Positions 4,867 through 56,139 of a stretch of DNA of 64,000 nt are shown here, piece after piece. Position numbers and translations under genes: made by a program. The DNA comes from an uncultured bacterium. GTDB taxonomy: Bacteria; Fidelibacterota; Marinisomatia; Marinisomatales; UBA1611. The stretch is taken from NCBI GenBank assembly GCA_965660855.1, contig CBFIBM010000003.1:32001-96000 (forward strand), in the 5' to 3' direction. Within the stretch, counting starts at the first letter, position 1, and each line of letters opens with the position of its first letter. The notes beneath the pieces are model-generated. The model did no database searches, was not told the DNA's origin, and saw only the letters and a program-made list of their open reading frames with translations.

Positions 4867-4876
4867 GAAATAAAAA

Positions 4877-7606: not shown

Positions 7607-7695
7607 GTACTCCTAATAAATGTCTTTCTTTGAGATTGATTTATACCGATGTAATTTTAAGCGAAAGTCGAAAATTATCTTTATTTAGATTTATT

Positions 7696-29231: not shown

Positions 29232-31523
29232 ATGAATCTTAGAAGAATATCAAATTGGCTTTTTAATTTAGATGCACATTATCCCAGGACAATTATTGCT
29301 GGAGTAATTTTCATCACAGTTATACTAGGTTGGAAAGTATTTAACTTAGAACTTGATCCAAGTGTCAGATCTATGTTGCCAAGAGACCACTCTATTGTTG
29401 AATCTATAGAAAAAATAGATGAATTATTTTCTGGGAGTGATATTATTATTATTGCTGTAGAGTCTGATAGCCTCTTGAATCATCCTGGAACTTTAAAAAA
29501 GCTATCTTCTTTTCAAGATTCATTAGAGTCTATTCCTTTAATTAGTCGAGTAACTTCAATTTATACACAAAATCATATAATTTCAACAAGCGATGGATTT
29601 AAAATTGAACCCTTGTTAACAGATATACCTATTGACTCTTCTGGTTATTATTCATTCATTGAAAAATTAAATCAAGCTGGCGTAGTAGAAAATCTGATTT
29701 CTGAAGATTACAATACAATTTGTTTTATTGGCCAAATAAACTCATCTTTTGAATTCGATGAATTTGAATTTCGCAAAGATATCTATGAATTAGTTGATCA
29801 TTTTAGTGATCCAGAAAAATTTTATGTATCGAGCCTACCGATCACCCAAGCTACAATAATTGATAATATGCAAAGAGATATGCGTGTTTTCACACCAATT
29901 GCAGTTGGACTTGGAATATTTTTGTTAATGCTTTCATTTCGAAGTTGGACGGGTGTGTTCTTACCTTTTATTGTTGTTGGATTCTCAATTGTATGGACAT
30001 TTGGAATTATGGGCTGGTTTAATATGTCAATGGCATTTATTGGTACTTTAATACCTGTAATGCTCGTTGCAATCGCAAATAATTATGGCATTCATATTAT
30101 TTCGCACTATTTCGAGTATTCAAAATCGGATTCAAAATCAACACGTGGACAAATTTTAAGAAAAACTATCCGTAAAGTAGGTATACCGATTCTTTTAGCG
30201 GGATTAACTACCATCATAAGTTTTTTAAGCCTTTTCACTCACGCACTTCCAAGGGCACAAGAAATGGGATTTTTAATATCTTTTGGTATTTTAGTTTCCT
30301 TTATATTAAGCATCATTTTGATCCCATCCGTTTTGGTCTTGGTTCCTAGGCCACATCATATAATGAAAGAAAAAAGTATGAATTTCATAAATAATTTTTT
30401 AATAGGGATGGGAAAATATTTTACAAAATATAGACTTCCAGTTTTAATATCATTCTCAATAATTGGATTATGGATTTCATTTGGTATTACAAAATTAAAA
30501 GTTGATACAAACCCAGATAATTACTTTCCAGAATCTTCAAAATTGAGGATTGCTAATACAAAAATTGGGGAGGCTTTTGGCGGTTCTACTCAAATGAGTA
30601 TTTTGATTGAAGGTGATATATATGACCCAAAACTTTTAAAAAATATTGAATTATTAACAGATCACATCAAAAGTAAATTTGATATTGTTACAAAAACATA
30701 CTCAATAAGTGATGTGATTAAGAAGATGAACTCCGCATTTAATGGTGGTGATAAATTTCTTGAGACAATACCAGATGATCGTGATTTAATATCCCAGTAT
30801 ATGTTTTTATATTCTATCTCTGCAGATGGTGATGAATTTGATCTTATATTAGATGATTTAGAACAACCTCAAAATACTCAGGTTTTTTTAAGATTGAAAC
30901 AAGTTCAAACCTCTACTATAGCTGATATTGTAGAAGATACAGAACAGTTCATAGAAGCCAATTTTTATGATGGTTCACCTATGGAATTGTCAGGTGCTGC
31001 TACTTTGATGGGGGTATTAAGTCGACTGATAGTTAGAGGTCAACTTATTAGTCTTTTTTGTTCTCTTCTAATTATTTTGGTAATTATGACTTTCATTTTC
31101 AAGTCTCTAGTAGGAGGAGTATTATCCACATTACCAATGTCAGTTTCAGTTTCTATGATGTTTGGTTTAATGGGATATTTAGATATTCCCTTAAATATGA
31201 CAACATCTATGCTAACCTGCATTCTTGTAGGGGTTGGAGTCGACTATACTGTTCATTTTCTATGGCATTTGCGTGACCATATTCGAAATGGAGAGACAAT
31301 AGATGAGGCAATTGCAAATACTTTTAAGATTTCCGGGAAGGGTATACTCTTTAATGGTCTCTCTGTGATAATCGGTTTTTCTGCTTTACTATTTTCAGTT
31401 TTTGTCCCGGTACAGATTTTTGGAATCTTAGTAATGAGTTCAATAACTTTTTGTTTATTTGGAGCATTAGCTATTTTACCAGCATTAACAAGTTTAATAA
31501 ACCCTAAATTTTTATATAAATGA
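29232..31523 (+). CDS. MMPL/RND family transporter
   Basis: Two-repeat topology with large periplasmic loops; AIANNYGIH and GVGVDYTVHF motifs. Confidence 0.92.
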   Translation: MNLRRISNWLFNLDAHYPRTIIAGVIFITVILGWKVFNLELDPSVRSMLPRDHSIVESIEKIDELFSGSDIIIIAVESDSLLNHPGTLKKLSSFQDSLESIPLISRVTSIYTQNHIISTSDGFKIEPLLTDIPIDSSGYYSFIEKLNQAGVVENLISEDYNTICFIGQINSSFEFDEFEFRKDIYELVDHFSDPEKFYVSSLPITQATIIDNMQRDMRVFTPIAVGLGIFLLMLSFRSWTGVFLPFIVVGFSIVWTFGIMGWFNMSMAFIGTLIPVMLVAIANNYGIHIISHYFEYSKSDSKSTRGQILRKTIRKVGIPILLAGLTTIISFLSLFTHALPRAQEMGFLISFGILVSFILSIILIPSVLVLVPRPHHIMKEKSMNFINNFLIGMGKYFTKYRLPVLISFSIIGLWISFGITKLKVDTNPDNYFPESSKLRIANTKIGEAFGGSTQMSILIEGDIYDPKLLKNIELLTDHIKSKFDIVTKTYSISDVIKKMNSAFNGGDKFLETIPDDRDLISQYMFLYSISADGDEFDLILDDLEQPQNTQVFLRLKQVQTSTIADIVEDTEQFIEANFYDGSPMELSGAATLMGVLSRLIVRGQLISLFCSLLIILVIMTFIFKSLVGGVLSTLPMSVSVSMMFGLMGYLDIPLNMTTSMLTCILVGVGVDYTVHFLWHLRDHIRNGETIDEAIANTFKISGKGILFNGLSVIIGFSALLFSVFVPVQIFGILVMSSITFCLFGALAILPALTSLINPKFLYK

Positions 31524-31834
31524 AAAAGTCAAACATAGATAGGACTCTAAGTTCTTCTATTATATTAATTACTTTGGCATTTATTCTTTTTGGTTTAAGT
31601 AATTCTAATTTAATAGAAATCTTTTTCTCATATTCTCTAAAAGATCATATAGACTATTCTATTAAATATAACCTAGACTTTGTTTTGATTCTTTATATTT
31701 TTTTATGTTTGCAGATTTCTGGTTATATTGAATTAAAATATAAAAAAGATTATTTATTAATTTCTATCATTAGCATTCTATTAACTCCTATTGCTATTTT
31801 TTTTATTATAAAAGATAAAAATAAAAATGATTAA
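31520..31834 (+). CDS. Small membrane protein (~3 TM)
   Basis: Overlaps both neighbours; hydrophobic. Confidence 0.6.
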   Translation: MKKSNIDRTLSSSIILITLAFILFGLSNSNLIEIFFSYSLKDHIDYSIKYNLDFVLILYIFLCLQISGYIELKYKKDYLLISIISILLTPIAIFFIIKDKNKND

Positions 31835-32594
31835 ATTTATTACAGTAGTTACTCTCTCTTATACAATTCTTATGGCAAATGTCCTTTCACCATACGAAAT
31901 AATGAATTATGTATATCAGTCACCAAAACCTAAAACCTCAATAATGGAAATAAAACTTGAAATTACACGATTAAAAAAGGGTAGAGAGAAAGTTAAAACA
32001 AGAGAATTTATCCGATATACAAAATTATATGATTCTGGAAAGTTTGTTTCAAAATCTTTGGCAAAATTTTCAAGTCCTAAAATTGTAAAAGGAACAGGAC
32101 TCCTAAGCTGGGTTTATAGAAATGGTGAAACAGATCAATGGTTCTTTTTACCAAAACTAAAAAAAGCAAAAAGAATCCAAGCAAAAGAAAAATCAAAGAC
32201 GTTCTTGAATACAGATTTTATTTACGAAGATCTTGAAAGTACCCAACCAAATAATGATAGTCTTGTGTTTATTGGTAATGAGTATTTTGAGGGTAACCTG
32301 TGTAACCTTATAATGTCATGGCCTAAGAATAATAGTTCCTATTTTTCAAAAAAGATATGGGTAAATACACAAAACTGGCAAATTATTAAAGTTGAATTTT
32401 ATAAAAGTGAATTAACAAAAGATAAAACTCTTTATCTGAAAAACTTCATAGAAAAAGATACTTATCTAACACCAGGTTTACTAGTAATGCAAAAAGAGAA
32501 TGGCAACAAAACAATTATGGAAGTTAAATCTTTTCAACCAAATATTGGTTTAAATGAAGAGGTTTTTTCAAACAAATTTTTAATGAATAATTAA
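31827..32594 (+). CDS. LolA-like outer-membrane lipoprotein-sorting protein
   Basis: FSSPKIVKGTGLL, DQWFFLP..KKAKRI, FLNTDFIYEDL. Confidence 0.88.
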   Translation: MIKFITVVTLSYTILMANVLSPYEIMNYVYQSPKPKTSIMEIKLEITRLKKGREKVKTREFIRYTKLYDSGKFVSKSLAKFSSPKIVKGTGLLSWVYRNGETDQWFFLPKLKKAKRIQAKEKSKTFLNTDFIYEDLESTQPNNDSLVFIGNEYFEGNLCNLIMSWPKNNSSYFSKKIWVNTQNWQIIKVEFYKSELTKDKTLYLKNFIEKDTYLTPGLLVMQKENGNKTIMEVKSFQPNIGLNEEVFSNKFLMNN

Positions 32595-32607
32595 ATTATA
32601 GGCTGGT

Positions 32608-33576
32608 CTAATATTCAACCAGAGCACAAGCAGCAGATAGTCCAGCTCCAGTACCAATTAATAAAAATTTATTTTTCCTTCTCAATTTTTTCTCCCTAAT
32701 AGATTTTACTAGTGCCATAGGCACAGAAGCAGCAACACAGTTACCAAAATAGGTGACATTATTCACAACTTTATTTCTGTCAAAACCACCCACCTCAACA
32801 TAGGCTTCGACAGCTTTTCCTGATGCTTGATGTGGTATAATTAAATCAATATCTTCTTTTTTTAGCTGAGTGGATTTTAGAGTATTTACCATTAATCTAT
32901 AAACTTGTTTTCTAGCTATTTTATATATCCCAGGGCCATCCATTGTAAATAAATTATCCTCTGCCGAAGTTTCAAAATCTTGGGGATGTTTATTCGTTCC
33001 CCCACCCCTAACCTCTGTCAAATGTGCACCCTCTGGCCATGTATTCATTTTATAATATATAAGTCTACTAGAGTTATTTTTTGAATTTGGTTCTAAAATA
33101 ATTGCTGCAGCACCATCTCCAAGAAGTGATGCACTTTCGGGCTCATTAAAATTACGTCCACGGGTTCCTCTATCAGAAGATATAATTAAAATCTTTTTAT
33201 AAACCTTTGATTGAATTAAGGAACTTGCAGTATGAAAAGCTGTAATAAATGATAGGCAAGTGCAATGAATACTAAATGAAGGAATACCATTTAAGCCCAT
33301 TTCTTTTTGATAGAATGTTGAAGTATCTGGGATTGTTTGTTTTGGTACCCCTGAAGCATTAATTATTAAATCTGGTGGACTACTATTTTCACCTAATGCT
33401 TCTAGACCTGCTATTGCACCCATCTTATCGACATCAATATTTGATACTCTTCTCTCTTTTACCCCAGATTTTTTAACTATCCATTCTGTGGACCTATTTA
33501 TTAAGGGAGCAATTTCTTCTGATGTCTGAATAACTGGAGGAATGTAGATTCCTGTTCCTGTAATTTTTACTTTCAA
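32608..33576 (-). CDS. 3-oxoacyl-ACP synthase III (KAS III)-like condensing enzyme
   Basis: Cys-His-Asn triad: HCTCLSF, PHQAS, FGNCVAAS; GDGAAA; GTGAGLS. Confidence 0.9.
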   Translation of the reverse strand: MKVKITGTGIYIPPVIQTSEEIAPLINRSTEWIVKKSGVKERRVSNIDVDKMGAIAGLEALGENSSPPDLIINASGVPKQTIPDTSTFYQKEMGLNGIPSFSIHCTCLSFITAFHTASSLIQSKVYKKILIISSDRGTRGRNFNEPESASLLGDGAAAIILEPNSKNNSSRLIYYKMNTWPEGAHLTEVRGGGTNKHPQDFETSAEDNLFTMDGPGIYKIARKQVYRLMVNTLKSTQLKKEDIDLIIPHQASGKAVEAYVEVGGFDRNKVVNNVTYFGNCVAASVPMALVKSIREKKLRRKNKFLLIGTGAGLSAACALVEY

Positions 33577-33587
33577 TTCAAAAAACT

Positions 33588-35030
33588 CTAAAAATAATAC
33601 TTTAATTCAAACCTAGAATGAGAGAAATCTTTCATTTTATAAAATTGATATTTTTCACCATCAGAATGTTCATTGCTACCATTTATTTTAGTAATTCCTA
33701 ATAATAATGATAGATCTTGAGCGATAGAATATTCTGCCTTTATTTCATTAAGTGAACCTGTTATATCTTTATTCTTATCATAGTTTTCTAAATCCATTAA
33801 AGATGTAAATGAAAAGGTTAAGTCTTCATTTAAGAATTTCTTTTTTAAGAAAAGGAATAATGCTTTATTGGTTAAAATAGCGATAGGAACCCCCATACCT
33901 GGAATGAATAGGTCTCTAGGTTTCATTGTATTAGGATCATATTCAAAGCCAGGAATATCCACTTCTACATTAGGAAGAGTATCTACCGAGTTGTATTGCT
34001 TTATATTATGCTCAAATAATTGAATAGAAAAATCAATATTAAATGGTAATTCAGTGTCAATCTGTATTGTATATTGTTCATATTCTACATTTTCTTGTAA
34101 AGGGAAAGAGAAAGCAACACTATCATATAATGAACTTTGTAAAGGGTTTGGATAAGGTCTTTCAATTGTTTTATTTTGATCTTTTGTATTAAAATATGAA
34201 TAATCAAAACGAGTAGTAAAAAACCTATTAAGGATAGTTACTCCAAATCCTAATGAGTTAGTTCTTCTATACCCAAATACTAAATCTGGAGATGATTTAA
34301 AGTTATTAAACTGAGTTGAATAATATTCGTTTACACCTGAAAAATTAAAAATACGATCGTTTCCACTAAATGATGAGAATGATAATTCACCAAATTTAGT
34401 TGAATAGTTAATAAATAATCCACCTTCGTAAGGAATGGAAGAAACAGGTATGATCTCGTACGGGTCCGGATATATGGGAAGCTCAACAGGGAAATCATCA
34501 CCACCTAATGGTATCCTGTTTGTTGAATGTAATGGAGAAAAAACACTATTTATTTTCAAATTCTTGTAATAAAAATCAACACCTAATGACAAGGTTGCAA
34601 GTTTTCGTTCAGTGCCACTAAAAAACATATAATAATAGTCGAGAGCACTCCCATTATCTAATGGACTATTTTCATCAACATTACCCCAAGAGTGTATTTG
34701 CTTTCCAACTTTTAATTCATAATGTTTCTTACTATATGTAATATAAAACTCTCTCATATCTAATACGAAATCTTGAGGATTACTCGTTTCTATAAAATAA
34801 GAATCATCTCTCACATGGTATTCAAGTGCAAATTCTCCAATTAATGATATATCTTCATATTGTTTTACAAAAACAATAGAACCCATACGATATGGAACAT
34901 TAATTAAAGATTTATCGGAAATTCTAGAAATATAAGAAAAATTAGAATAACCCGAAAAAGTAAACGAGGAGGGTTCGGAATGCATAAGTTCGAATACTGC
35001 AAGTATAAAAATGTAAAATTTATTTTTCAT
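33588..35030 (-). CDS. Putative outer-membrane beta-barrel (DUF1302-like)
   Basis: Signal peptide, REFYI..VGKQIHSWG, alternating beta pattern, C-terminal ELKYYF. Confidence 0.7.
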   Translation of the reverse strand: MKNKFYIFILAVFELMHSEPSSFTFSGYSNFSYISRISDKSLINVPYRMGSIVFVKQYEDISLIGEFALEYHVRDDSYFIETSNPQDFVLDMREFYITYSKKHYELKVGKQIHSWGNVDENSPLDNGSALDYYYMFFSGTERKLATLSLGVDFYYKNLKINSVFSPLHSTNRIPLGGDDFPVELPIYPDPYEIIPVSSIPYEGGLFINYSTKFGELSFSSFSGNDRIFNFSGVNEYYSTQFNNFKSSPDLVFGYRRTNSLGFGVTILNRFFTTRFDYSYFNTKDQNKTIERPYPNPLQSSLYDSVAFSFPLQENVEYEQYTIQIDTELPFNIDFSIQLFEHNIKQYNSVDTLPNVEVDIPGFEYDPNTMKPRDLFIPGMGVPIAILTNKALFLFLKKKFLNEDLTFSFTSLMDLENYDKNKDITGSLNEIKAEYSIAQDLSLLLGITKINGSNEHSDGEKYQFYKMKDFSHSRFELKYYF

Positions 35031-35048
35031 AACTTTAAAACTTTATAT

Positions 35049-36116
35049 CTATTTTAATAAAATTATTTTTTTAATAACGTTTCTAAAATTATCCTGAATT
35101 TTAATAAAATAAATTCCTGAAGGATGACTTTTTGAATGCCATGTAATTTTATTTTTACCTTTTCTATAAATTTTATTTTTGGAGATAACTTCAATTTCTT
35201 TTCCCTTTAAGTCTAAAATGGATAATGTCATTGGTCTATCATAAGGGACCATAATATCAATATTAACTGAAGGGTTAAATGGATTCGGATAGGCAGACGA
35301 GGTCGTAAACTGGTATGGTAATATTTGATCATCTATTTTAGTGACTGAACTATCACATTCTTGTGGTGAATAAACAGGAAAAGAATAATAAAATTGATCT
35401 AGGCTGAGTTCTAAATGTTCTGAATCCTCTATACAACTAGGGATATTTGAACAAAGATTATTAGCACCGATGGCAAAAAATGGATATCCACCATTATCAG
35501 TATTCACCCAATCAAGATTTAGGCTACAAAAACAATCAGGAAGAGAATCGATATTATTATTAAAAACCCATAGATAAGATAAGTTTTCAAGATCGCAAAT
35601 TGATTCTGGTATTCTTTCCAATTCATTATAACCAATATCAAAAAAGTACAAATTAGAAAGATTCCCAACACTATCGCCGATTGATGAAATAATGTTATTG
35701 TTTAAATAAACAGAATTTAAATTATAAAGTTTATGAAATGACTCTGGTAAAGAAGAAATTCTATTCCACTCAAGATAGAGAGATGTAAGAGATGATAAAT
35801 TCCCAAAATTATTTGGTAAAGAATAAATAGTATCACTTACCCCAGAGCTATTTCCATAATTACCTGCAACAAAAAATCGTAGTCTTCCATTAAACCATGT
35901 TTGAGTACCAATTTCTAGAGGGGAATTATAATCTAAATCATTTTGAATTATTAAACTATCCAATACAATAATATCATTATCGCTAAGACAGGTATCTCCA
36001 ACTAAAATAGTGACATTATTTGGAACTTCTGAGAAATATGTAAATGTGCTATCACAATTAGATAGTATAATCTGAGGAAAAAAGTAGCCTAACAAATAAA
36101 GATATATTTTTCTCAT
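35049..36116 (-). CDS. Secreted leucine-rich-repeat protein with PNPFNP C-terminal domain
   Basis: Several LxxLxLxxNxIxxLP repeats; YPNPFNP...SGIYF...KIILLK. Confidence 0.88.
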   Translation of the reverse strand: MRKIYLYLLGYFFPQIILSNCDSTFTYFSEVPNNVTILVGDTCLSDNDIIVLDSLIIQNDLDYNSPLEIGTQTWFNGRLRFFVAGNYGNSSGVSDTIYSLPNNFGNLSSLTSLYLEWNRISSLPESFHKLYNLNSVYLNNNIISSIGDSVGNLSNLYFFDIGYNELERIPESICDLENLSYLWVFNNNIDSLPDCFCSLNLDWVNTDNGGYPFFAIGANNLCSNIPSCIEDSEHLELSLDQFYYSFPVYSPQECDSSVTKIDDQILPYQFTTSSAYPNPFNPSVNIDIMVPYDRPMTLSILDLKGKEIEVISKNKIYRKGKNKITWHSKSHPSGIYFIKIQDNFRNVIKKIILLK

Positions 36117-36117
36117 A

Positions 36118-38756: not shown

Positions 38757-38760
38757 AATC

Positions 38761-39840
38761 TTAAAAAAAGGTTTTATAAAAAAGAGAACAATCTTTTTTA
38801 ATTTTATCTTCAGTTAATTCAAACTTAGATAAATCATAAGAATGCTCGCTCTTGTATTCTTTTTGACTTTTATCAACAATCTTTATTTGCTCATCTAAAT
38901 GAAGAGTTTTTTCAATATTTATAAATTTCATCACATCTTTCATCAAAGGTTCAAAATCATTCATCATATTATCAAAACGAATAATGAACACCTTTTCCTT
39001 ATTAATCTTGTTTGTTACCCAATCTTCTTGGAATCGATTCAATAATTCAACAAGAGAATTATAAAGTCGCGTAATAAAACGTTTTTTAATATTCTCATCC
39101 AGAGACCAAAAATTAAACTTTTTATCAAGGACTCCAGTCACTAAACTTAAACCTGAGGGAATTAAATCAAGAGGGTCTCGTACGATATAGAGAATACTTG
39201 CGTCTGGATATTTTTTTTGAAATTTTGGAAGATTACTACTCAAACTAAATAATTTACCGATATATCGATCTCCAGAGTTTGAATAAAGGTTTCGACGCCA
39301 TATAGAATCAAACCATTTATAATCTCTATCTGAATTGTCAATGATCCTTGGGTCTACCCAATGAAATAAATCTTCTTTATCAAATGTTAAAATAAAACCA
39401 TAGAAAAAGAAGCCATCTAGATATCTAAATAGTAATGAAACATCATCGGTTTCAATAGAGGTAAGGCTTGTTTTATGAGCTTTTGTAGAATGGTGCCTTG
39501 TTGGACTAATAATTTCTAATAAAGGTAAAATTGGTTTTATTAATTTTTGGAGAAAAATAGAAGGGTAAATCAATTGCCATAGTTGAGACCCTGTTCCAAT
39601 TTTTTGTGTTATTAAAAACCTATGTAAGAAAGTTGTCCCTGACCTTGGGTTTCCAACAATGATTATAGGATTTATTATTTTTTGGTTAAAGCCCGGGAAA
39701 AAAACTTGATCTAAAAATTGACTAAAAATAACAACGAATCTCAGAAATATAATAAGGACACCTGTTAGGATAGGAGAAATCCAAGTTCCAAAGGTTTTTC
39801 CTAATATAAAATAAGCTTTTGATATTCTACGATTTATCAT
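38761..39840 (-). CDS. PAPS-dependent sulfotransferase
   Basis: 5'-PSB loop IVGNPRSGTTFL; 3'-PB motif IVRDP....S; hydrophobic N-terminus. Confidence 0.9.
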   Translation of the reverse strand: MINRRISKAYFILGKTFGTWISPILTGVLIIFLRFVVIFSQFLDQVFFPGFNQKIINPIIIVGNPRSGTTFLHRFLITQKIGTGSQLWQLIYPSIFLQKLIKPILPLLEIISPTRHHSTKAHKTSLTSIETDDVSLLFRYLDGFFFYGFILTFDKEDLFHWVDPRIIDNSDRDYKWFDSIWRRNLYSNSGDRYIGKLFSLSSNLPKFQKKYPDASILYIVRDPLDLIPSGLSLVTGVLDKKFNFWSLDENIKKRFITRLYNSLVELLNRFQEDWVTNKINKEKVFIIRFDNMMNDFEPLMKDVMKFINIEKTLHLDEQIKIVDKSQKEYKSEHSYDLSKFELTEDKIKKDCSLFYKTFF

Positions 39841-39990
39841 TCTGAAGCATTTGTTAATAATTTATTAGAATTTTTATAATCTATTTTCAGAGTTTAAACT
39901 ATTAGACAATTATTACATTAAATAGATAAATCTTAGATAATAATATTTAAATAGATCATTAATAAACTTATTTTAAATTAGTACTTTCTT

Positions 39991-41436
39991 ATGATAAAAT
40001 TAATTCTACATTCATTTATTTTTACGTTTGTTTTTAGTCAAGAAGCTTTCGATGGGCTGACGCTATACTCTCCAACATCAGGAAATGGATCACATGTAAC
40101 CTATTTAGTAGATAATCAGATGAACATAATCAACTCTTGGGAACATCCCTATGGTGCTGCAAGTATGCCATATTTATTAAAAGATAGCACTCTTATCTAC
40201 CCGTATCGAGTTCCAAACCCTACAATGAACTCAGGTGGAGTTGGCGGTGGAATTTCAAAATATTCTTGGGCTGGTGACCTTCTTTGGAGTTATGAAATTG
40301 CAAACAATTTATATCAGCATCATCATGATGTGGAGCCACTTCCTAATGGAAATATTTTGGTAATTGTTTGGGAGAGGAAAACCTATGCAGAAGCAATATC
40401 AGCTGGAAGACAAACCTTAAATAATTCTTTAAATGAGATTTGGTCTGAAGCAATTCTAGAGTTAGAACCTGTTGGCACAAATGAAGTAAATATTGTTTGG
40501 GAATGGCATCTTTGGGATCATCTTGTGCAAGATTACGATCCTAATGTCAGTAATTATGGTGTAGTCAGTGAACATCCTGAATTGCAAGATATAAACTATG
40601 GAAATGCAGGGAGTAACCAAGGTCCAGGCGGTCCAAATGGAGATTGGAAACATTTTAATGCAATAGCATACAATGAACACTTAGATCAAATTGCTCTTTC
40701 ATCAAGAATGCATGATGAAATTTATATTATTGACCACAGTACTACATCTCTTGAAGCTGCAGGTCATAATGGTGGAATTTATGGAAGAGGTGGAGACTAT
40801 TTATTTAGATGGGGGAATCCTCAGTCCTATAACCGTGGTTCAAATCAAGATCATCAATTATCTGATCAACATGGTGTGAATTGGATTCCAGAGGGATACC
40901 CAGGTGAAGGAAATTTGATTATTTTCAATAATAATTATACAAATAATAATTCTGCTGTTTTTGAAATTACACCTCCGTTAAACGAGTCAGGTGGTTATAC
41001 TATAGATGAGAGTCAACCTTTTGGACCTGAAGAACCAGTCTGGATACATACTGGAAATTTTCATACTCAAATGCAAGGTGGAGCTTTTAGATTACCAAAT
41101 GGCAATACGCTTATTACTGATTGTGATGATGCTTTAATGTTTGAGGTTACATATAATAATGAAGTTGTCTGGAGTCATGATCAAGGTGGTGGACAATCAT
41201 TTATTGCTAGAGCTCAAAAATACCCTATTGATTATTTAGGAGATGAATTTCCTACTTATGTAACCGGAGATATTAATTTTGATCAAGATTTGGATATTTT
41301 AGATATATTATTTATATCAGATATGAGCTCTGGTTTTGGTTATACTTCGACACCTCCAGCAGATTTTAATGAAGATGGATATGTAACAATTTCAGATGTC
41401 ATACTACTCATTCAGTTTATAATTAATAATAATTAG
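39991..41436 (+). CDS. Arylsulfotransferase-like protein with C-terminal dockerin
   Basis: QHHD..LPNGN, DWKHFN, SSR, WGNP, DQH; GDINFD...D / ADFNEDG....D. Confidence 0.85.
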   Translation: MIKLILHSFIFTFVFSQEAFDGLTLYSPTSGNGSHVTYLVDNQMNIINSWEHPYGAASMPYLLKDSTLIYPYRVPNPTMNSGGVGGGISKYSWAGDLLWSYEIANNLYQHHHDVEPLPNGNILVIVWERKTYAEAISAGRQTLNNSLNEIWSEAILELEPVGTNEVNIVWEWHLWDHLVQDYDPNVSNYGVVSEHPELQDINYGNAGSNQGPGGPNGDWKHFNAIAYNEHLDQIALSSRMHDEIYIIDHSTTSLEAAGHNGGIYGRGGDYLFRWGNPQSYNRGSNQDHQLSDQHGVNWIPEGYPGEGNLIIFNNNYTNNNSAVFEITPPLNESGGYTIDESQPFGPEEPVWIHTGNFHTQMQGGAFRLPNGNTLITDCDDALMFEVTYNNEVVWSHDQGGGQSFIARAQKYPIDYLGDEFPTYVTGDINFDQDLDILDILFISDMSSGFGYTSTPPADFNEDGYVTISDVILLIQFIINNN

Positions 41437-41504
41437 TAAAATTTGTTATTTCTTTTTGGAAATAAAATCTTACCTATAATTAAAGAAGTATATTTAGATT
41501 TAAA

Positions 41505-43811
41505 ATGATTCTGAATTCAATCCTAAAAAAGCTTCAAAATTGGTTAATAAAGCAGTCCTTAGATCATTCAAAAAGAACAGTGGTTATTTCTTTTCTACTA
41601 ACAATTATTTTTAGTTTCGGTCTTCGATTTATAATTATTGATGATGATATGATGAAAATGCTTCCAAAAAACTTAGATTCAAGAATATTATGGGATTCAA
41701 TTCAAAAAGAATTTGGAAGCACAGAATCAATTTTTATAGCATTCGGAAATAAAAATCAAAATATTTTAAATCAGGAAGCTTTAGAAACTTCCTGGAAATT
41801 AGCTAAAGAATTAAAAAAGCTAAAATCTGTTCAAAATGTAATTAGTATCAGTACAAAAACTAGAGTTGATAACATTGATGATTTTTTAGAAATAAACCAA
41901 CTTCAGGAGAGCGAGACTTTAAATGAAAGTCAAATTGTAGCTATAAAGTCTTATTTGAATGTAAATAAAAAATTAAAAAAACAATTGATAAGTAAAAATG
42001 GATCATACTTTTTAACTATTGTTCATCCAGATACAATTATTGGCCTGGATAGATTTAGAGATGGAGTAGTGGGCGTTTGCTCTAATATACTAGAAAAATA
42101 TGAAGTCCATTACAGTGGTACGGCATATATCACTGGATCAATTCCACAGTTAATTAGAAAGGATATACGGGGTCTAATTCTTATTGGAACTGCAATAATG
42201 ATATTTGTACTTATGATAAACTTGAGAAATATCATTGCTGTTTTTATGGTTTTAATGGTTATTATTTTATCTTTGATATCTATGTTAGGAGCGATGGGTT
42301 GGTTATTTAAATTAACAAACTCTGATAAATTTTTATTTGCATTACTTAACACTTCAATGCCAATAATTCTATTAACAATTGCAAATTCAGACGGAGTACA
42401 TGTAATAACAAAATTTTTTAAGGAGTTAAGAAAAACTAAAAATACGAAAAAATCATTGCATACTACCTTGTTGTCACTTCAGCTACCAATATTTTTGACA
42501 AGTATTACAACAATTGGAGCCTTCTTAACCATGGTTTTTTCGCCACTTGAACCTTTAATAGGTTATGGTATTTGTATCTCAATTGGTATTGCTTGCGCTT
42601 GGCTTTTTAGTTCAATCACTCTTCCTGCATTAATGATCATGTATAATTGGAATACAAAAAGTCGCGTATTAAATGAAAAAGGGCCTTTTGAGATTTTTAT
42701 TAACTTTTTGAGTAGGATAGTTTTAAGAAGACCAAAGTTATTATTTACTTTGGGAGTATTAATTATATCTGTTAGTTCATTTGGTATATTAAGCTTAAAT
42801 GTTGATGTTAATTTATCTAGCTTTTTTAAACCTAAAACAGAAATTCGAGATAGTATGGATTTTATGGATGAAGAGATGGCTGGAACTATGGACTTAAGAA
42901 TTCGCATAGAGGGAGATATGAGAGACCCTCAACTATTAAATAAAATAGATTCTTTACAAACGTTTATCGAAAAAAATGAAAAGATTTCATTAACAAATTC
43001 TATTTCTGATATTGTAAAAGAAATGCACTGTACTTTCATGAATGATAGTATTAAATATAAAACGATACCAAATACGAAAGCTAAAATCAACAATCTCTTT
43101 ACGATGTACGATCTTTCTGGTAATGCAGAAGATCTTTCTTTTCTGGTTAATCAAAATAATTCAGCAGGCCTTGTAAGTTCTCTAAGTTCTACAATGTCTA
43201 CTGATCAGGTATTCTATTTTATTGAAAATATATCTCAATATATTAGCTTAAAATTTTCAAAGTTCCATACGATGAATGTTACAGGTATAATTGTTGTAAT
43301 CAGAGATTTAGTGATTTTAATCATACAGTCATCATTTATTAGTATTGCATTATCGTTAATTTTTGTCATTGTAATTTCTTCTATATTCTTTAATGGTATA
43401 CTTTGGGGAATTTTGGCAACTATACCATTAACAGGATCAATAATTTTAAATTTTGGATTAATGGGTTATTTAAACATACCTTTAAATCATATTACTGCAA
43501 TTTTATCTTCAATTATTATTGGCGTTGGAATTGACTTTGCTATTCATTTTATTGCAAAATATAGAAACCTTCAAAAAGAGAATATAAAAGACAACTTAAC
43601 ACAGGAAACCTTTAAAGAGGCTGGTTATCCTATATTGCTTGACGCAGTTTCTAATATGGGTTTTGGGGCACTATTGTTTTCTTCATTTCTACCTGTTCAG
43701 TTTATAGGAGGGTTAATGATAATTGCAATGTTTTCAACTTCTTTTGGTACTTTAATTATATTAACAACTTTAGTTCAACTATTTCAAAATAATATTAAAA
43801 AAAATCAATAA
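41505..43811 (+). CDS. MMPL/RND family transporter (second copy)
   Basis: TIANSDGVH and GVGIDFAIHF; same architecture as 29232..31523. Confidence 0.9.
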   Translation: MILNSILKKLQNWLIKQSLDHSKRTVVISFLLTIIFSFGLRFIIIDDDMMKMLPKNLDSRILWDSIQKEFGSTESIFIAFGNKNQNILNQEALETSWKLAKELKKLKSVQNVISISTKTRVDNIDDFLEINQLQESETLNESQIVAIKSYLNVNKKLKKQLISKNGSYFLTIVHPDTIIGLDRFRDGVVGVCSNILEKYEVHYSGTAYITGSIPQLIRKDIRGLILIGTAIMIFVLMINLRNIIAVFMVLMVIILSLISMLGAMGWLFKLTNSDKFLFALLNTSMPIILLTIANSDGVHVITKFFKELRKTKNTKKSLHTTLLSLQLPIFLTSITTIGAFLTMVFSPLEPLIGYGICISIGIACAWLFSSITLPALMIMYNWNTKSRVLNEKGPFEIFINFLSRIVLRRPKLLFTLGVLIISVSSFGILSLNVDVNLSSFFKPKTEIRDSMDFMDEEMAGTMDLRIRIEGDMRDPQLLNKIDSLQTFIEKNEKISLTNSISDIVKEMHCTFMNDSIKYKTIPNTKAKINNLFTMYDLSGNAEDLSFLVNQNNSAGLVSSLSSTMSTDQVFYFIENISQYISLKFSKFHTMNVTGIIVVIRDLVILIIQSSFISIALSLIFVIVISSIFFNGILWGILATIPLTGSIILNFGLMGYLNIPLNHITAILSSIIIGVGIDFAIHFIAKYRNLQKENIKDNLTQETFKEAGYPILLDAVSNMGFGALLFSSFLPVQFIGGLMIIAMFSTSFGTLIILTTLVQLFQNNIKKNQ

Positions 43812-44563
43812 TGTTTTCAAAAATTATTCTACTATTTATAATAATTAATTTTTCATACGGACAGTTAGGTTATGAAATTGCTCATAAAGTATATTCAAAA
43901 AATGTAGTAGATGATTTAACCTGTATCATGAAAATGAAATTAATTAATTCAAAGAATAAAATTAAAAACTATAAAATGAAATCATTATCAATAGATGGTA
44001 GTCGAAAGCAAATAATATGGTTTATGGAGCCCAGTTATGATAAAGGGATTTCATTCTATAAAGTTGAACATGAAAACAGAGAAAATGAAATGAAAATGTG
44101 GCTGCCAGCTTTTAAAAAAATTAGGAGGATTAGTTCAAAGAAAAAAAGTGATTCATTCATGGGATCAGATTTAAGCTATGAGGATTTATCAAGAAGAAAA
44201 TTAAATGACTATACATTTAAAAAAATAGAAGATAGATCTTTTAATAATAAAAGTTATTTTGTAATAGAAATTACACCAAAACAAAAATCAAATTCTTCAT
44301 ACAAAAATCATATATCATGGGTTGATAAAAAAACATATAATATTATAAGAGAAAATTCTTTTGGTATTAATGGTAATCTTTTAAAAGAAAAAGAATTTTT
44401 TTATATAACTTTGAAAGGTTATGAAATTATTGAAAAAGTAAAGGTTTATAACCCAATATTGAAGCATTCAACTATTATCGAATTTACTCAAATAGAGATT
44501 AATTCAGATATTAATGAAAGCTTTTTTCATGAAAAATATATGAAACGTATTCCTAAAATTTAA
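43811..44563 (+). CDS. LolA-like outer-membrane lipoprotein-sorting protein (second copy)
   Basis: WFMEP..DKG, MWLPAFKKIRRI, SFMGSDLSYEDL; TAATG overlap with the MMPL gene. Confidence 0.88.
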   Translation: MFSKIILLFIIINFSYGQLGYEIAHKVYSKNVVDDLTCIMKMKLINSKNKIKNYKMKSLSIDGSRKQIIWFMEPSYDKGISFYKVEHENRENEMKMWLPAFKKIRRISSKKKSDSFMGSDLSYEDLSRRKLNDYTFKKIEDRSFNNKSYFVIEITPKQKSNSSYKNHISWVDKKTYNIIRENSFGINGNLLKEKEFFYITLKGYEIIEKVKVYNPILKHSTIIEFTQIEINSDINESFFHEKYMKRIPKI

Positions 44564-46902
44564 TTTCGTAATGGTTTTCCTTTCAGTAACATATATTTGA
44601 TTCTTTCTTGGGTGAATTGTTCTCCGGCTAGGGAAATAAAAGCTTCGCGTTCAAGATCTAAGAGATATTGTTCATCAACTGGTCTTATTAGACTAGCATT
44701 GTCACCACCAGTTAATACATGTGAAAGTTTCTCTCCAATTTTTTGATCAAATTCAGATATATTTCCTTTAACTCTTAAGTTTTTAAGTGATACATCTAAA
44801 GCTGTTTTACCACCTTTTCCAGGCAATAATAGATTGTCTACAAATACTGGTGCTTTATAATTGCTAGATAATTTTAGTGTTTTTATTTTTGCTTTTTTTA
44901 TTAAATGATCTTTATTCATAATGATAGAATCTGAATGCCTGATTAATCCAATTTTTTTTGCCTCGAAAGCGTTGTTAGATGTTTTTGCAAAACCTATAGT
45001 TTCAAATATTTTTTGAATTTTTTGAAAAGTAGTATCATTCGTATCTGATGATAATGCATTTAGGATCATCCGTAAATTACCACCTCCTCCAGGAATTAGG
45101 CCTACTGCTACCTCAACTAAACCCATATAGGTTTCAGCCGCTGCCATAATATGACAACAAGGTTGAATGATTTCTACACCACCTCCCAAAGTCAATTGGA
45201 ATGGAGTTGCAACAATAGGTCCCTTTGAAAATCGTATTCTCTGAGTAGTATCTTGTAAACTTTTAATTACAAAATTTAATTTTTCCCATTCTTTATTTTT
45301 ACTAAGATTAAGAATAAGATTTAAATCTGCTCCAACGCAAAAATTAGCTCCTTGATGTCCAATGACCATCCCTTTAAATGTATCGTTTTCAATAAGGTCT
45401 AATCCAAAATTAATTATTTTTAAAATTGAACTATCTATTGGCTGCATTTTGGGCTTCTTAGCAGAGTGGAACTCGACATTAAGTATTCCATCTCCTAGAT
45501 TATTTAAGCTTGCACTTTCATCTTTTTTGATACTTTCAATTTTTGTTTTATAAAGATTTAAATTAATTGAATGAAAATCTTCATTTTTTGTTTTTAACGT
45601 ATTATTTATTGGGCACCAATAATAGAGTTTTCCATTTTTATTTTCATAAAATTTTTCCCTTCCTTTTGAAAGCATATAAAGAACCCAATTTGGAACGATT
45701 TTACCTTCCTCAATCATCCTATTTGTTGTTTTTCGTAGACCAATAATATCCCAGCTTTCGAAGGGGCCATACTCCCACCCAAAACCCCATTTCATCGCAT
45801 TATCTATGTTTACAATATCATTAGAAATTTCAGGCACTCTATTAGCGCTATAAATTAATGTACTTGAAAAAGTTTCCCAGAAAAAGGTACTTCCTCTATC
45901 AGATTTACTGATCAAGTAAATTAACCTATCGGATGTATTTTGATAATTTTTAGCTTTAGTAATGCAGTCAAATTGAATATCTTTAATTTGAGTGTATTTA
46001 TAGGTACTTAAATCTAATGAATTGATTATACCATTTTTATCCTTCTTATAAAACCCCTCTCCTGTTTTTTGACCAAGTCTACCATTTTTAATTAAATCAT
46101 TTATAATAGGTGGTGGATTGAATATATCTCGCTCTTCATCTTTTATTGCCTTTTCATATGTAGTTAGGGAAACATTTTTTAAAGTATCTAACCCAACAAC
46201 ATCAGCAGTTCTAAATGTTGCACTCTTTGGCCTGCCAGATATTGGACCAGTTAGAGCATCTACTTCTTCTATTGTAAGATTATTTTTTATAGCTAATTCT
46301 ATTGCTTTCATCATTCCATAAATCCCAACTCTATTACCAATAAAGTTTGGAGTATCCTTTCCGTGTACAATTCCCTTACCTAAAATAGTTTCACCAAAAT
46401 ACATCATAATTGAATATGTTTTCTCTGATGTAAAATCACTTTTGATAAGTTCTAGTAAATGCATATATCTAGGAGGATTAAAAAAATGCGTAATCATAAA
46501 TCGTTTTTGTAGTTCTAAAGGTAGGTTTTTTGTTAATTCAAAAATTGGAATACCGGATGTATTTGAAGTTAAAAGTGCATTTTTATTTAAAAATGGAGCT
46601 ATTTGATCATAGACTTTCAACTTAATATCGAGATGCTCAATTACTGCTTCAATAACCCAGTCTACTTTATTTAACTTTTTTAAATCTTCTTTGTAGTTAC
46701 AAGGCGTTATTAAATCAATATTTTTAATATCATAAAGAGGAGTGGGTTTCATTCTTAAAAGTGAGTTTTTTCCTTTTTCAGATAAGTCTTGATCCGTATC
46801 ATAAAGAAAGTTTTTTACACCTGCATTACTTAGATGCCCAGAAATTTGAGCCCCCATGACTCCAGAACCTAAAACTGCTACTTTTTGAATTTTTTTAATC
46901 AT
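44560..46902 (-). CDS. 3-hydroxyacyl-CoA dehydrogenase/enoyl-CoA hydratase (FadN-type)
   Basis: VLGSGVMG, SNTSG, HFFNPPRY, DTPNFIGNR; C-terminal crotonase NFCVGADL, LGGG.E. Confidence 0.93.
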   Translation of the reverse strand: MIKKIQKVAVLGSGVMGAQISGHLSNAGVKNFLYDTDQDLSEKGKNSLLRMKPTPLYDIKNIDLITPCNYKEDLKKLNKVDWVIEAVIEHLDIKLKVYDQIAPFLNKNALLTSNTSGIPIFELTKNLPLELQKRFMITHFFNPPRYMHLLELIKSDFTSEKTYSIMMYFGETILGKGIVHGKDTPNFIGNRVGIYGMMKAIELAIKNNLTIEEVDALTGPISGRPKSATFRTADVVGLDTLKNVSLTTYEKAIKDEERDIFNPPPIINDLIKNGRLGQKTGEGFYKKDKNGIINSLDLSTYKYTQIKDIQFDCITKAKNYQNTSDRLIYLISKSDRGSTFFWETFSSTLIYSANRVPEISNDIVNIDNAMKWGFGWEYGPFESWDIIGLRKTTNRMIEEGKIVPNWVLYMLSKGREKFYENKNGKLYYWCPINNTLKTKNEDFHSINLNLYKTKIESIKKDESASLNNLGDGILNVEFHSAKKPKMQPIDSSILKIINFGLDLIENDTFKGMVIGHQGANFCVGADLNLILNLSKNKEWEKLNFVIKSLQDTTQRIRFSKGPIVATPFQLTLGGGVEIIQPCCHIMAAAETYMGLVEVAVGLIPGGGGNLRMILNALSSDTNDTTFQKIQKIFETIGFAKTSNNAFEAKKIGLIRHSDSIIMNKDHLIKKAKIKTLKLSSNYKAPVFVDNLLLPGKGGKTALDVSLKNLRVKGNISEFDQKIGEKLSHVLTGGDNASLIRPVDEQYLLDLEREAFISLAGEQFTQERIKYMLLKGKPLRN

Positions 46903-46906
46903 TGTT

Positions 46907-48037
46907 TTAAGCCCTTTTTAATATTGTAGAGATACCTTGTCCTGTTCCGATGCACATAGTTGCCAATCCAGTTCTTTGATTTTTTTGTTCTAAAGTATTA
47001 ATTAATGTTGTAATTATCCTTGCACCAGAGCAGCCTAGAGGGTGTCCAAGGGCGATAGAACCACCATTAATATTTATTTTTGATTGATTCCATTTTCCTT
47101 TTTTTATAACGTATAAAGCTTGGGCTGCAAATGCTTCATTTAATTCAATTAAATCAATATCTTTCATTTTGAGATTTGCTTTATGGAGTGCTTTTTCCGT
47201 AGCAGGTAATGGTCCAATTCCCATTTTTCGCCAATCCACACCAGCTACCGCTCTACCAATGATATGAGCTCTAATATTTAAGTTATGCTTTTTTGCAAAA
47301 GGTTCACTGGTTAATAATATTGCGGAAGCTCCAAAGGAAAGAGGACTTGATGTAGCTGCAGTCACACTTCCATTTTCTAAAAAAGCTGGTCTAAGAGCTT
47401 TTATTTTTTCAAGATTTGGGGTTCGAGGTCCTTCATCTTGATTTATTAAATGGCTACCGTAAGAATCAATAGTTACGATTTCATTTTTAAAAAAATCCAA
47501 TTCAATAGCTTTGAGTGCTTTCTCATGGGATTCGATAGCAAATTCCTCCTGTTGACTTCTAGATATATTCCCATCAGAGGCTAATCGCTCTGCTGTTTCA
47601 CCCATCCCGATGTAATATTCTTGTCTTGCGAGTTTAGAGTTGAAATCAGGATTAAAACCACCCATAGGTATAGAAAACATATCTTCAACACCCCCAGCTA
47701 TTCCAACTTCAATATCTCCAGATTCAATTTTAGTACTAATTTGATGGAATGCATCCATTGAAGAACCACAAAATCGATTAACAACTGAACCAGCAATTGT
47801 TTGTGGCAAACCTGCTAAAATTGCGATACCTTTTGAAATAAGCATCCCTTGAGGTCCTTCAGGGAACGCACAGCCAAAAATTAAATCTTCAATAAATTTA
47901 GGGTTTAAATTCTCGTTTCTTTTTAAAAGATCAATGATAATTTGGGAAGATAAATCATCTGGACGAATTCCAATTAACTTGCCATTTTTAATTCCTATTG
48001 GAGATCGAACAGCATCTATTACTACAGATTTTATCAT
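46907..48037 (-). CDS. Acetyl-CoA C-acyltransferase (thiolase)
   Basis: [28 protein letters not shown]. Confidence 0.95.
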
Positions 48038-55931: not shown

Positions 55932-56123
55932 GTGAAAAATTTATCAGTAATAATTTTTTCTTTCTTTTCTTTAATCATAGCTATTTCCGCTATGAATTAT
56001 GAAATAAATACTAGTTCTCCTAATTGTGTACCATTCAAAGGAAAAGGGTTTAACTCTTGTTGTTCAATTGATATGAAATCAACATACAACAAATCATGTG
56101 AAAAGAATTGCTGTCTCAAATAA
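55932..56123 (+). CDS. Small exported Cys-rich protein
   Basis: GGAGG RBS plus GTG; signal peptide; 6 Cys including two CC pairs. Confidence 0.6.
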   Translation: MKNLSVIIFSFFSLIIAISAMNYEINTSSPNCVPFKGKGFNSCCSIDMKSTYNKSCEKNCCLK

Positions 56124-56139
56124 CCGAGTAGCTAGCTTT

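Follow-up and report, generated by a model that had tools for sequence, protein, structure and literature searches.

A conserved locus of uncultured Marinimicrobia that may encode a two-step, envelope-spanning sulfation system

Introduction

The universal activated sulfate, 3′-phosphoadenosine-5′-phosphosulfate (PAPS), to our knowledge never leaves the bacterial cytoplasm. Mycobacteria build their sulfolipid-1 with the sulfotransferase Stf0 and export it through MmpL8. A second family, the PAPS-independent arylsulfate sulfotransferases (ASSTs), is also found outside the cytoplasm, and the accessible part of a review describes the natural donors of most ASSTs, as well as the roles of the exported ones, as unknown (PMC13426309). 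In caprazamycin biosynthesis the two kinds of enzyme work in sequence: the PAPS-dependent Cpz8 sulfates a triketide pyrone from a type III polyketide synthase (PKS), and the sulfate is then transferred onward by the ASST Cpz4 (PMC6731281). Here we describe a locus within a 64,000-nucleotide stretch of contig CBFIBM010000003.1 (assembly GCA_965660855.1; the whole stretch is called the window below) from an uncultured bacterium of the SAR406/Marinimicrobia group, in which a PAPS-type sulfotransferase (SULT) and two ASST-family proteins are encoded together with a set of putative lipid-transport proteins. From the observed gene content, folds, active-site residues and co-inheritance we read the chemistry of this locus as a two-step, envelope-spanning sulfation (sulfate relay) system, a reading to which we give a probability of roughly 45%.

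The caprazamycin/liposidomycin set, which comprises the type III PKS Cpz6 together with Cpz8 and Cpz4 (Tang et al., 2013, as quoted in the accessible parts of PMC6731281 and PMC13426309), was the only studied system we found that co-encodes a PAPS-dependent enzyme and a PAPS-independent ASST. Two further described systems resemble the transport part of the locus. For aryl polyenes, lipid export to the outer membrane by a resistance-nodulation-division (RND) pump and a LolA-like carrier is the accepted model, as given in the available text of PMC8253772. In Pseudomonas, a set of DUF1302, DUF1329, BNR-domain and RND genes was found to be co-fit on Tween 20, according to the portion of 10.1101/2020.07.04.188060 that cites Price et al.

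Results

Gene Content and Co-inheritance of the Locus

The genome (84% complete, 2.09 Mb, G+C about 30%) holds the window as part of its contig C3. An open reading frame (ORF) map of the window returned all 14 ORFs at the coordinates stated beforehand in a preliminary description of this DNA (Table 1), and the domain calls made there (MMPL, LolA_like, 3-ketoacyl-ACP synthase III (KAS III), leucine-rich repeat (LRR), ASSTs, sulfotransferase, FadN and thiolase) were reproduced with Pfam and NCBIfam. Six minus-strand genes, encoding SULT, the START protein (P202), the ASST with a type 9 secretion system (T9SS) tail (ASST_T9), the LRR protein, the outer-membrane barrel (OMP480) and the KAS III paralogue (KAS3), look like a single operon because their spacing is only −4 to +18 bases. 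The genes of MMPL1, TM104 and LolA1 overlap one another, and those of the second ASST (ASST_doc), MMPL2 and LolA2 are consecutive on the plus strand.

Co-occurrence was searched in 201 genomes of the phylum; since these genomes are kin, the counts are descriptive rather than a statistical test. SULT orthologues (56–66% identity) were present in 20 of the 201, distributed patchily over seven families. The START protein was found in 19 genomes, all of them SULT holders, and in the 20th SULT genome the contig stops at the SULT gene. Matches of the ASST_T9 family at E ≤ 1e-49 were obtained in 20/20 SULT holders and in 0/181 of the others, where two weak matches (about 1e-22 to 1e-25) were all that was seen. 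ASST_doc orthologues of at least 52% identity were likewise present in all 20 SULT-bearing genomes, and KAS3 orthologues occurred in 12 of the 201, every one among the 20 SULT holders.

Synteny was then tallied from a scan of one genome per species, which gave 249 SULT relatives; the best 80 loci were kept. Of these, 24 run uninterrupted through 10 kb on either side and make up the tally, and the other 56, in which a flank is truncated, were excluded. SULT, START, the barrel and ASST_doc were present together in 24/24 loci, so that synteny across relatives, to which the preliminary description had looked, was borne out. ASST_T9 and LRR were each present in 23, the LRR gene adjoining that of ASST_T9 without exception where seen, followed by KAS3 (19), MMPL2 and LolA2 (18 each), FadN (14), the thiamin pyrophosphokinase TPK (12), LolA1/TM104 (10), thiolase (8), MMPL1 (7, some copies being lost to the 10-kb flank limit), PAPS synthase (5) and a second barrel behind LolA2 (5). 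Inspection of ten genomes by hand agreed with this picture and revealed one to three tandem copies of ASST_doc; altogether, SULT-bearing loci carry two to four ASST genes. As the synteny is conserved and the genes co-occur across genomes, the locus is a unit rather than a chance neighbourhood. Its strictly co-inherited core consists of six genes (SULT, START, barrel, two ASSTs and LRR), often accompanied by KAS III and the MMPL/LolA modules. The two bracketing MMPL and LolA pairs that had been described are thus real in this genome, but only part of the relatives share them.

This distribution bears on the possibility that two functions merely lie side by side, the ASSTs using aryl sulfates from seawater or prey and the SULT-START-barrel part making an unrelated sulfated product, with the locus shared for regulatory or historical reasons. 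Such a separation would agree with the solitary ASST relatives of SULT-less genomes (see Discussion) and with the state of knowledge on ASST donors in the accessible text of PMC13426309. However, it would not lead one to expect the all-or-none distribution of ASST_T9 matches at E ≤ 1e-49 between SULT holders and the other genomes, nor the fact that ASST_T9 and LRR are embedded here in the SULT operon, flanked by START and the barrel with few-base gaps or overlaps, and we consider it rather improbable.

FadN and thiolase were linked to the locus no more closely than TPK, an unrelated gene that served as an internal control. In the relative G200, PhoU and Na/Pi transporter genes separate FadN and thiolase from the locus, and the two sit there with their own acyl-CoA dehydrogenase and TetR genes. 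Because of the match with the TPK control and these intervening genes, the beta-oxidation genes were removed from the system; they are probably background synteny. One branch of the preliminary description had supposed that sulfated lipids or sterols are imported, desulfated and passed to beta-oxidation through FadN and thiolase. It is true that both genes converge on LolA2 here and lie nearby in a number of relatives, and that Pseudomonas DUF1302/DUF1329/RND genes show fitness phenotypes on fatty esters, as the available part of 10.1101/2020.07.04.188060 reports. Nevertheless, Pfam and NCBIfam searches found no sulfatase at the locus, a PAPS-type sulfotransferase, joined in relatives by a PAPS synthase, adds sulfate, and the known RND pumps of this type are exporters; together with the linkage data this makes a catabolic locus very unlikely, and that branch was abandoned. 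The other branch, in which a lipid is built, sulfated and exported, fits the co-inherited core and the PAPS synthase found within the locus of some relatives.

Among the best 80 of the 249 loci, all record titles that name a taxon read Marinimicrobia or Neomarinimicrobiota, with the exception of one short contig. This 6.8-kb contig (L107) carries SULT (60% identical), START, barrel and ASST genes and belongs to a genome record labelled Winogradskyella (Bacteroidota), which is probably a binning error or, less probably, a gene transfer. Extra genes for T9SS-tailed proteins were seen between LRR and the barrel in some relatives (for example L039 12147–15631 in G170), among them those of a serine hydrolase of the beta-lactamase family and of a 320-aa protein without known family. 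In the present genome itself (G000), the 1.7-kb contig C73 carries a 492-aa fragment (211–1689) with 89% identity to MMPL2, and a 693-aa ASST_T9 paralogue, 38% identical, is found on the 2.1-kb contig C69 (24–2105); these copies stem either from a second strain in the bin or from a second, unassembled partial copy of the locus.

Near-identical DNA (87–98% of sampled words) was found in 16 metagenome runs; these belong to seven studies, including one that is possibly the source study. Metatranscriptome contigs of four libraries, with 90–100% likeness, covered 22–27 of 30 locus bins and bridged the KAS3/barrel junction in 4/4 runs and the START/SULT junction in one. Since DNA may be present in such libraries, these contigs are a weak hint of expression that cannot rank genes, prove transcription or show single transcripts, and uncovered bins carry no meaning.

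The Sulfotransferase and Its PAPS Supply

SULT was matched by Sulfotransfer_3 (PF13469; E 4.2e-17, 63.6 bits against a cut-off of 27) and by Sulfotransfer_1 (PF00685; E 7.8e-10, 39 bits against 22). Its loop IVGNPRSGTTFL, which we take to be the 5′-phosphosulfate-binding (PSB) motif, was invariant in 11/11 orthologues. At the N-terminus lies one conserved hydrophobic stretch, some 35 residues long, in which a Ser-Pro is conserved and an Arg/Lys stands in the centre. A single-sequence search of the PDB returned weak matches (E 0.06–0.3), and in the ESM Atlas SULT fell into generic sulfotransferase clusters only.

PAPS would be supplied by a fused ATP sulfurylase/APS (adenosine 5′-phosphosulfate) kinase, which in this genome is encoded in the 105–6015 region of contig C36. 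In the five relatives that carry this PAPS synthase inside the locus (G183 and four others), its gene lies on the same strand as, and directly beside, those of ASST_T9 and LRR, and is co-directional with LolA1, ASST_T9 and LRR, an arrangement that ties the secreted ASSTs to PAPS-derived sulfate. On C36, the sole PAPS synthase gene of the genome has a Wzc-like tyrosine kinase/co-polymerase gene on one side and genes for methyltransferases and a glycosyltransferase on the other; these neighbours hint at a sulfated surface polysaccharide, either as an acceptor or as a second user of PAPS.

Distant SULT homologues (24–28% identity) occur in other families of the phylum with no ASST, START, barrel or MMPL gene near them; they were regarded as a different system and left uncounted. 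A 211-aa gene behind one of them was considered as a START protein and ruled out (hhalign probability 0.06). In the very small genomes (approximately 1 Mb) of one family, such a homologue (27–28% identical; L158 9280–10383 and L159 9596–10699) was accompanied by no other part of the locus.

Two ASST Propellers and Their Probable Display

ASST_T9 was recognized by Arylsulfotrans (PF05935, E 8.7e-26) and carries a T9SS tail according to Pfam and NCBIfam. A profile of 11 orthologues could be aligned to the Escherichia coli ASST (3elq) with an E-value of 6.5e-7. In this alignment H356, N358, R374 and the catalytic H436 of the E. coli enzyme correspond to H298, N300, R316 and H356 of ASST_T9, all invariant in 11/11 orthologues (the E. 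coli active-site residues and their roles follow the accessible part of PMC13426309). H201, also invariant, is a candidate for the equivalent of E. coli H252, which lies outside the alignment. The closest solved structures in a profile search were 9kf4 and 9kf6 (E 3e-18), a Streptomyces ASST that acts on caprazamycin-type liponucleosides according to the available portion of a 2026 preprint.

ASST_doc also belongs to PF05935 (E 1.3e-21), and its alignment to 3elq spans residues 349–378 only, placing H221, N223 and R239. The residues HHH110–112, H221, N223 and H294 (in a ′QH′ motif) were invariant in 16/16 orthologues, and R239 was kept in 14/16; judged by its motif, H294 would be the catalytic histidine. 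The preliminary description had called this protein an ASST with a dockerin. The ASST part of that call stands; the dockerin scores below the Pfam cut-off (18.6 vs 22.9 bits), yet the profile of the 16 orthologues matches solved dockerins with E-values of 0.003–0.35.

Conservation of these residues speaks to a further alternative, in which the propellers would have no catalytic role and would serve a lipid-handling machine as structural parts, comparable to the BNR-domain proteins of Pseudomonas. The order of propeller, RND pump, LolA-like (DUF1329-like) carrier and DUF1302-like barrel does parallel the co-fit BNR/RND/DUF1302/DUF1329 set, but the invariance of the mapped E. coli catalytic residues in ASST_T9 (11/11), and of H221, N223 and H294 in ASST_doc (16/16), would be unexpected for a purely structural protein, and we hold this explanation to be highly improbable.

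The LRR protein was matched by LRR_8 (E 2.1e-11) and Por_Secre_tail (E 3.8e-11), and both it and ASST_T9 carry the T9SS sorting domain (PF18962/TIGR04183). The genome encodes two PorU-type T9SS sortases (596 and 559 bits against a cut-off of 420) and dozens of T9SS-tailed proteins, so ASST_T9 and the LRR protein should reach the cell surface. Elsewhere in the window (56098–57528), a secretory-lipase-family protein has a clear dockerin (37.9 bits), and contig C2 encodes a 1257-aa T9SS-tailed protein with a weak cohesin match (22.2 bits, or 25.1 with neighbouring matches, against a cut-off of 24.1). Taken with the tail of ASST_doc, these sequence matches suggest that the cell surface has a display system of the cohesin-dockerin type. 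A fourth ASST-family gene, encoding 422 aa in which neither a T9SS tail nor a dockerin was found, was observed on contig C6 of G000 (7637–9969; L005), directly behind a gene of the NAD-dependent epimerase/3-beta-hydroxysteroid-dehydrogenase family.

Putative Lipid Carriers, Pumps and Outer-Membrane Barrel

Neither P202 nor OMP480 had any Pfam match, even at E-values up to 10, and their structures were therefore predicted with AlphaFold2. P202, modelled from an alignment of 11 orthologues, adopted a START fold with a predicted local distance difference test (pLDDT) score of 87.6. Foldseek retrieved START lipid-transfer proteins for this model, with Xanthomonas 3qsz on top (E 2.5e-12) and TM-scores of 0.63–0.79 normalised by query length and up to 0.80 by target length. 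By its predicted structure P202 is a START helix-grip fold and thus a putative lipid-binding protein, which puts the exported START protein of the preliminary description on firmer ground. OMP480 was predicted as a beta-barrel of about 18 strands (pLDDT 75.1) resembling AlgE, OprD and porins in Foldseek (TM about 0.5), in agreement with the outer-membrane barrel described before. A barrel paralogue behind MMPL2-LolA2 in G200, 27–29% identical to OMP480, matched DUF1302 marginally (E 3.9e-5, 23.3 bits against a cut-off of 23.2). When START and the barrel were modelled as a complex, the prediction gave no answer (score 0.00, two runs) and argues neither for nor against their interaction.

Both pumps contain MMPL (PF03176; E 1.2e-49 and 169.6 bits for MMPL1, E 1.4e-25 and 90.4 bits for MMPL2, cut-off 20.5) and about 12–13 hydrophobic segments. 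Their scores with the HAE3 model TIGR00921 (284 and 183 bits, respectively) lie under its cut-off of 352, and membership of that subfamily is not claimed. A TetR gene comes before MMPL2 in G200, where it is recognized by Pfam TetR_N, and a weak BLAST likeness indicates one in G189 as well. No family was found for TM104, and G183 keeps it between MMPL1 and LolA1. The two carriers were matched strongly by LolA_like (PF17131; E 6.6e-42 and 143.7 bits for LolA1, E 3.3e-45 and 154.5 bits for LolA2, cut-off 30). LolA1 has an N-terminal hydrophobic leader, presumably a signal peptide, and LolA2 showed in addition a weak match to DUF1329 (E 3.5e-5).

A KAS III Paralogue Distinct From FabH

KAS3 contains both KAS III Pfam domains, and its Cys-His-Asn triad was mapped (C107, H and N in the MxnB alignment). 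MxnB and CorB are ketosynthases that join two chains into an alpha-pyrone. The relationship of KAS3 to them was assessed as a bit-score ranking against all PDB chains, in which MxnB (4v2p, 183.8 bits) and CorB (4yuc, 180.2 bits) came before FabH (150 bits or less), and with the FabH of the genome itself the ranking was inverted (FabH up to 296 bits, CorB 121, MxnB 119). This housekeeping FabH, encoded on contig C2, is 28% identical to KAS3, and by sequence the two enzymes are distinct. KAS3 furthermore keeps the residue matching MxnB T322. On these sequence grounds KAS3 probably helps to make the carrier on which sulfate would travel. In the relative L080, a divergent KAS III-like gene (4942–5928, 26% identical to KAS3) lies between MMPL2 and LolA2 and is followed by a second barrel, which ties condensing enzymes to these pumps.

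A word search of 5.8 billion proteins returned 1939 KAS3 relatives at E ≤ 1e-30; the best 120 of the 1939 were at least 67% identical and bore generic ′ketoacyl-ACP synthase III′ names, which are uninformative on function. A second FabH paralogue was considered as a substitute where KAS3 is lacking and found no support, being located between an acyl-CoA dehydrogenase gene and recJ, outside the locus. This extra paralogue, about 40% identical to FabH, was observed in the KAS3-less L065–L068. On contig C10 of G000 (65109–68089), the orthologues of the acyl-CoA dehydrogenase gene and recJ are adjacent, with no FabH paralogue between them.

Coordinates and Surroundings

Housekeeping-type genes flank the locus; one side has glycolysis genes, a sodium symporter and thiamin pyrophosphokinase, and the other has TonB receptors and ferritin. 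On a tandem basis, two glyceraldehyde-3-phosphate dehydrogenase genes overlap by 4 bases at 19926–21940 of the window. A promoter and terminator scan of the locus gave 109 promoter-like sites against 114 expected by chance, which is uninformative in such AT-rich DNA, and we claim no individual site.

Table 1. Features of the locus, with positions in the window, strand and the basis of each assignment.
Feature	Position	Strand	Basis
MMPL1: HAE3/MMPL-type RND inner-membrane transporter, 763 aa, about 12 hydrophobic segments	29232..31523	+	Pfam MMPL, hydropathy
TM104: 104-aa membrane protein, 3 hydrophobic segments, overlapping both neighbours	31520..31834	+	hydropathy
LolA1: exported LolA-like periplasmic carrier	31827..32594	+	PF17131
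KAS3: KAS III-type condensing enzyme, Cys-His-Asn triad	32608..33576	-	Pfam ACP_syn_III, ACP_syn_III_C
OMP480: 480-aa predicted outer-membrane beta-barrel, perhaps distantly DUF1302-like	33588..35030	-	AlphaFold2, Foldseek
LRR protein with T9SS C-terminal sorting domain	35049..36116	-	LRR_8, Por_Secre_tail
ASST_T9: ASST-family beta-propeller with T9SS sorting domain	36118..38151	-	PF05935
P202 (START): 202-aa exported protein, predicted START-fold lipid-binding	38148..38756	-	AlphaFold2, Foldseek
SULT: PAPS-type sulfotransferase, N-terminal hydrophobic anchor at residues ~17–51	38761..39840	-	Sulfotransfer_3, Sulfotransfer_1
150-base divergent intergenic region SULT/ASST_doc, presumed promoters	39841..39990	.	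coordinates, sequence
ASST_doc: second ASST-family propeller, weak C-terminal dockerin	39991..41436	+	PF05935
MMPL2: second HAE3/MMPL-type RND transporter	41505..43811	+	Pfam MMPL
LolA2: second LolA-like carrier, weak DUF1329 likeness	43811..44563	+	PF17131
FadN-type dehydrogenase/hydratase	44560..46902	-	3HCDH + ECH
Thiolase	46907..48037	-	Pfam/NCBIfam

Discussion

Exported ASSTs such as those of the locus have no access to PAPS, which is unavailable beyond the cytoplasm; this problem would be solved if a hydrophobic carrier received its sulfate within the cell and were then exported. In the sulfate relay that we propose, the fused ATP sulfurylase/APS kinase would, judging by its family, provide PAPS, from elsewhere in the genome in the present case and from within the locus in some relatives. 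KAS3, where present, may condense thioesters (acyl or beta-ketoacyl) to give a hydrophobic product whose hydroxyl is acidic and of the enol or phenol type, for example a dialkyl-hydroxypyrone, and the membrane-anchored SULT would sulfate this hydroxyl at the inner membrane. As folds and gene order suggest, the MMPL-type RND pumps could then extract the sulfated lipid from the inner membrane, START and the LolA-like carriers could take it across the periplasm, and the barrel, possibly DUF1302-like, could provide passage through the outer membrane. Finally, the ASST propellers would load the sulfuryl group on their catalytic histidine and transfer it to extracellular acceptors, one ASST being secreted by the type 9 system along with the LRR protein and the other bearing a dockerin-like tail. 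The surface glycans or proteins of the cell itself are candidate acceptors, and the LRR protein might be a partner or a target of ASST_T9. In effect, activated sulfate would arrive in a compartment closed to PAPS. In its full form, namely as a trans-envelope ′sulfate shuttle′ in which an enol or phenol lipid is charged from PAPS, exported by the START/LolA-like/RND/barrel chain and discharged by displayed ASSTs, the proposal is a tentative one, and we hold it with less than even confidence.

Several observations weigh against this proposal. The hydrophobic stretch of SULT is flanked by positive charges on its N-terminal side, and a hairpin and a single-pass anchor would both fit; with a single-pass anchor the catalytic domain could lie on the periplasmic side, where PAPS is not expected. 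The PAPS synthase of this genome sits in a polysaccharide-type gene set on a different contig from the locus, and in six of the 24 full loci neither an MMPL nor a LolA gene occurs inside 10 kb. As to the carrier, MxnB and CorB fall within the FabH clade with no diagnostic pyrone motif, as stated in the accessible text of PMC4578411, so that pyrone formation by KAS3 is a likeness only. Moreover, eight of the 20 SULT-bearing genomes had no KAS3 orthologue at E ≤ 1e-60, and a direct search of five KAS3-less genomes gave FabH-type paralogues of 25–30% identity only; in these bacteria the carrier would be made otherwise, or would differ from the one proposed. Finally, eight SULT-less genomes carry an ASST_doc-like protein, and in the five of these that were inspected it was 38–48% identical (BLASTP) with no SULT or START gene near it. 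Such solitary relatives imply that ASSTs of this phylum can run on another donor.

A different explanation is that the sulfated lipid is itself the end product, an outer-membrane or surface sulfolipid comparable to sulfolipid-1, with the ASSTs only remodelling it, shifting sulfate from one lipid molecule to another or acting on unrelated substrates. The same core of anchored SULT, START, barrel and MMPL/LolA proteins fits such a pathway, the RND and LolA-like export of aryl polyenes ends in the outer membrane, and ASSTs whose relatives occur without the locus need not depend on it. What an end-product sulfolipid leaves unexplained is the strict co-inheritance of two to four ASSTs and LRR with SULT, as well as the same-strand PAPS synthase beside the secreted ASST; we judge it unlikely, though deserving of more weight than the separation into two functions.

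The sulfate relay, for its part, would make the locus a concrete and testable answer to the question of extracellular sulfation by bacteria, in a bacterial group that ranks among the most abundant uncultured ones of the dark ocean. If the shuttle exists, it would be the first known case of enzymatic sulfation by bacteria outside the cytoplasm with their own activated sulfate, and its carrier would be the first physiological donor known for exported ASSTs. The relay, if true, would also represent a microbial route by which sulfated organic matter is made at cell surfaces, provide a natural, PAPS-regenerable donor for ASST biocatalysis and assign a function to the widespread sets of RND, LolA-like and DUF1302-like genes.

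Comparison With Known Systems

The preliminary description had stated that no system with this combination was described, which was half right, in that RND and LolA-like lipid export is known from the aryl polyenes (PMC8253772, in its accessible part). The parts belong to known families, and a single precedent exists for their logic, namely the antibiotic pathway of an actinomycete; its pairing with envelope-spanning transport and displayed ASSTs was not found in the literature searched. Titles and the beginnings of abstracts on Marinimicrobia and sulfotransferases yielded nothing on this gene combination, and the related literature that the search brought up was limited to actinomycete or biotechnological contexts.

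With regard to transport, the aryl-polyene/flexirubin module of ApeL (LolA-like), ApeM (RND) and ApeN (LolB-like) combines RND and LolA-like proteins beside KAS-type enzymes, as seen here. However, aryl-polyene clusters lack a sulfotransferase, an ASST, START and a DUF1302-like barrel, and they possess their own acyl carrier proteins, reductases and dehydratases, which are absent in this locus. The Pseudomonas set is resembled through the weak DUF1329 likeness of LolA2, the weak DUF1302 likeness of the barrel paralogue, the RND pump and a beta-propeller, but its propeller is of the BNR type and it has no linked sulfur enzymes. Mycobacterial sulfolipid-1 likewise pairs a PAPS sulfotransferase with an MMPL-family lipid exporter, although in another envelope and with neither ASSTs nor a START/LolA/barrel relay; SULT matches solved mycobacterial-type sulfotransferases weakly (E 0.06–0.15).

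Among single enzymes, MxnB and CorB (4v2p and 4yuc) are the best solved relatives of KAS3, which keeps the triad and the T322 equivalent, whereas they take carrier-protein-bound chains from modular PKS lines and this locus contains neither a PKS nor an extra carrier protein. The periplasmic ASST of E. coli (3elq) belongs to the same propeller family, with H356, N358, R374 and H436 conserved in ASST_T9, but the similarity is low (E 6.5e-7 with a profile); the E. coli enzyme is a free periplasmic protein with the partners DsbL/DsbI, none of which are encoded here, in contrast to the T9SS and dockerin-like localisation of the present ASSTs.

The closest comparison is with caprazamycin. The Cpz pathway is a cytoplasmic antibiotic pathway of a Gram-positive bacterium, whereas the ASSTs here are exported, as their T9SS tail and dockerin indicate. 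No chalcone-synthase-type enzyme is present in this locus, its place being taken by KAS III in 19/24 loci and by nothing in the rest, and START, the barrel, the RND pumps and the LolA-like carriers are added. In common to both is the co-encoding of a PAPS sulfotransferase, an ASST and a condensing enzyme, SULT and an ASST occurring together in 24/24 loci here, and the closest solved structure to ASST_T9 is a Streptomyces ASST (9KF6) with caprazamycin-type substrates, as given in the available part of the preprint. The preliminary description had left unexplained why a PAPS sulfotransferase and PAPS-independent ASSTs should be located together; by analogy, two-step sulfation of the caprazamycin kind would supply the logic, and we suggest that the locus, though not a member of that pathway, works like it.

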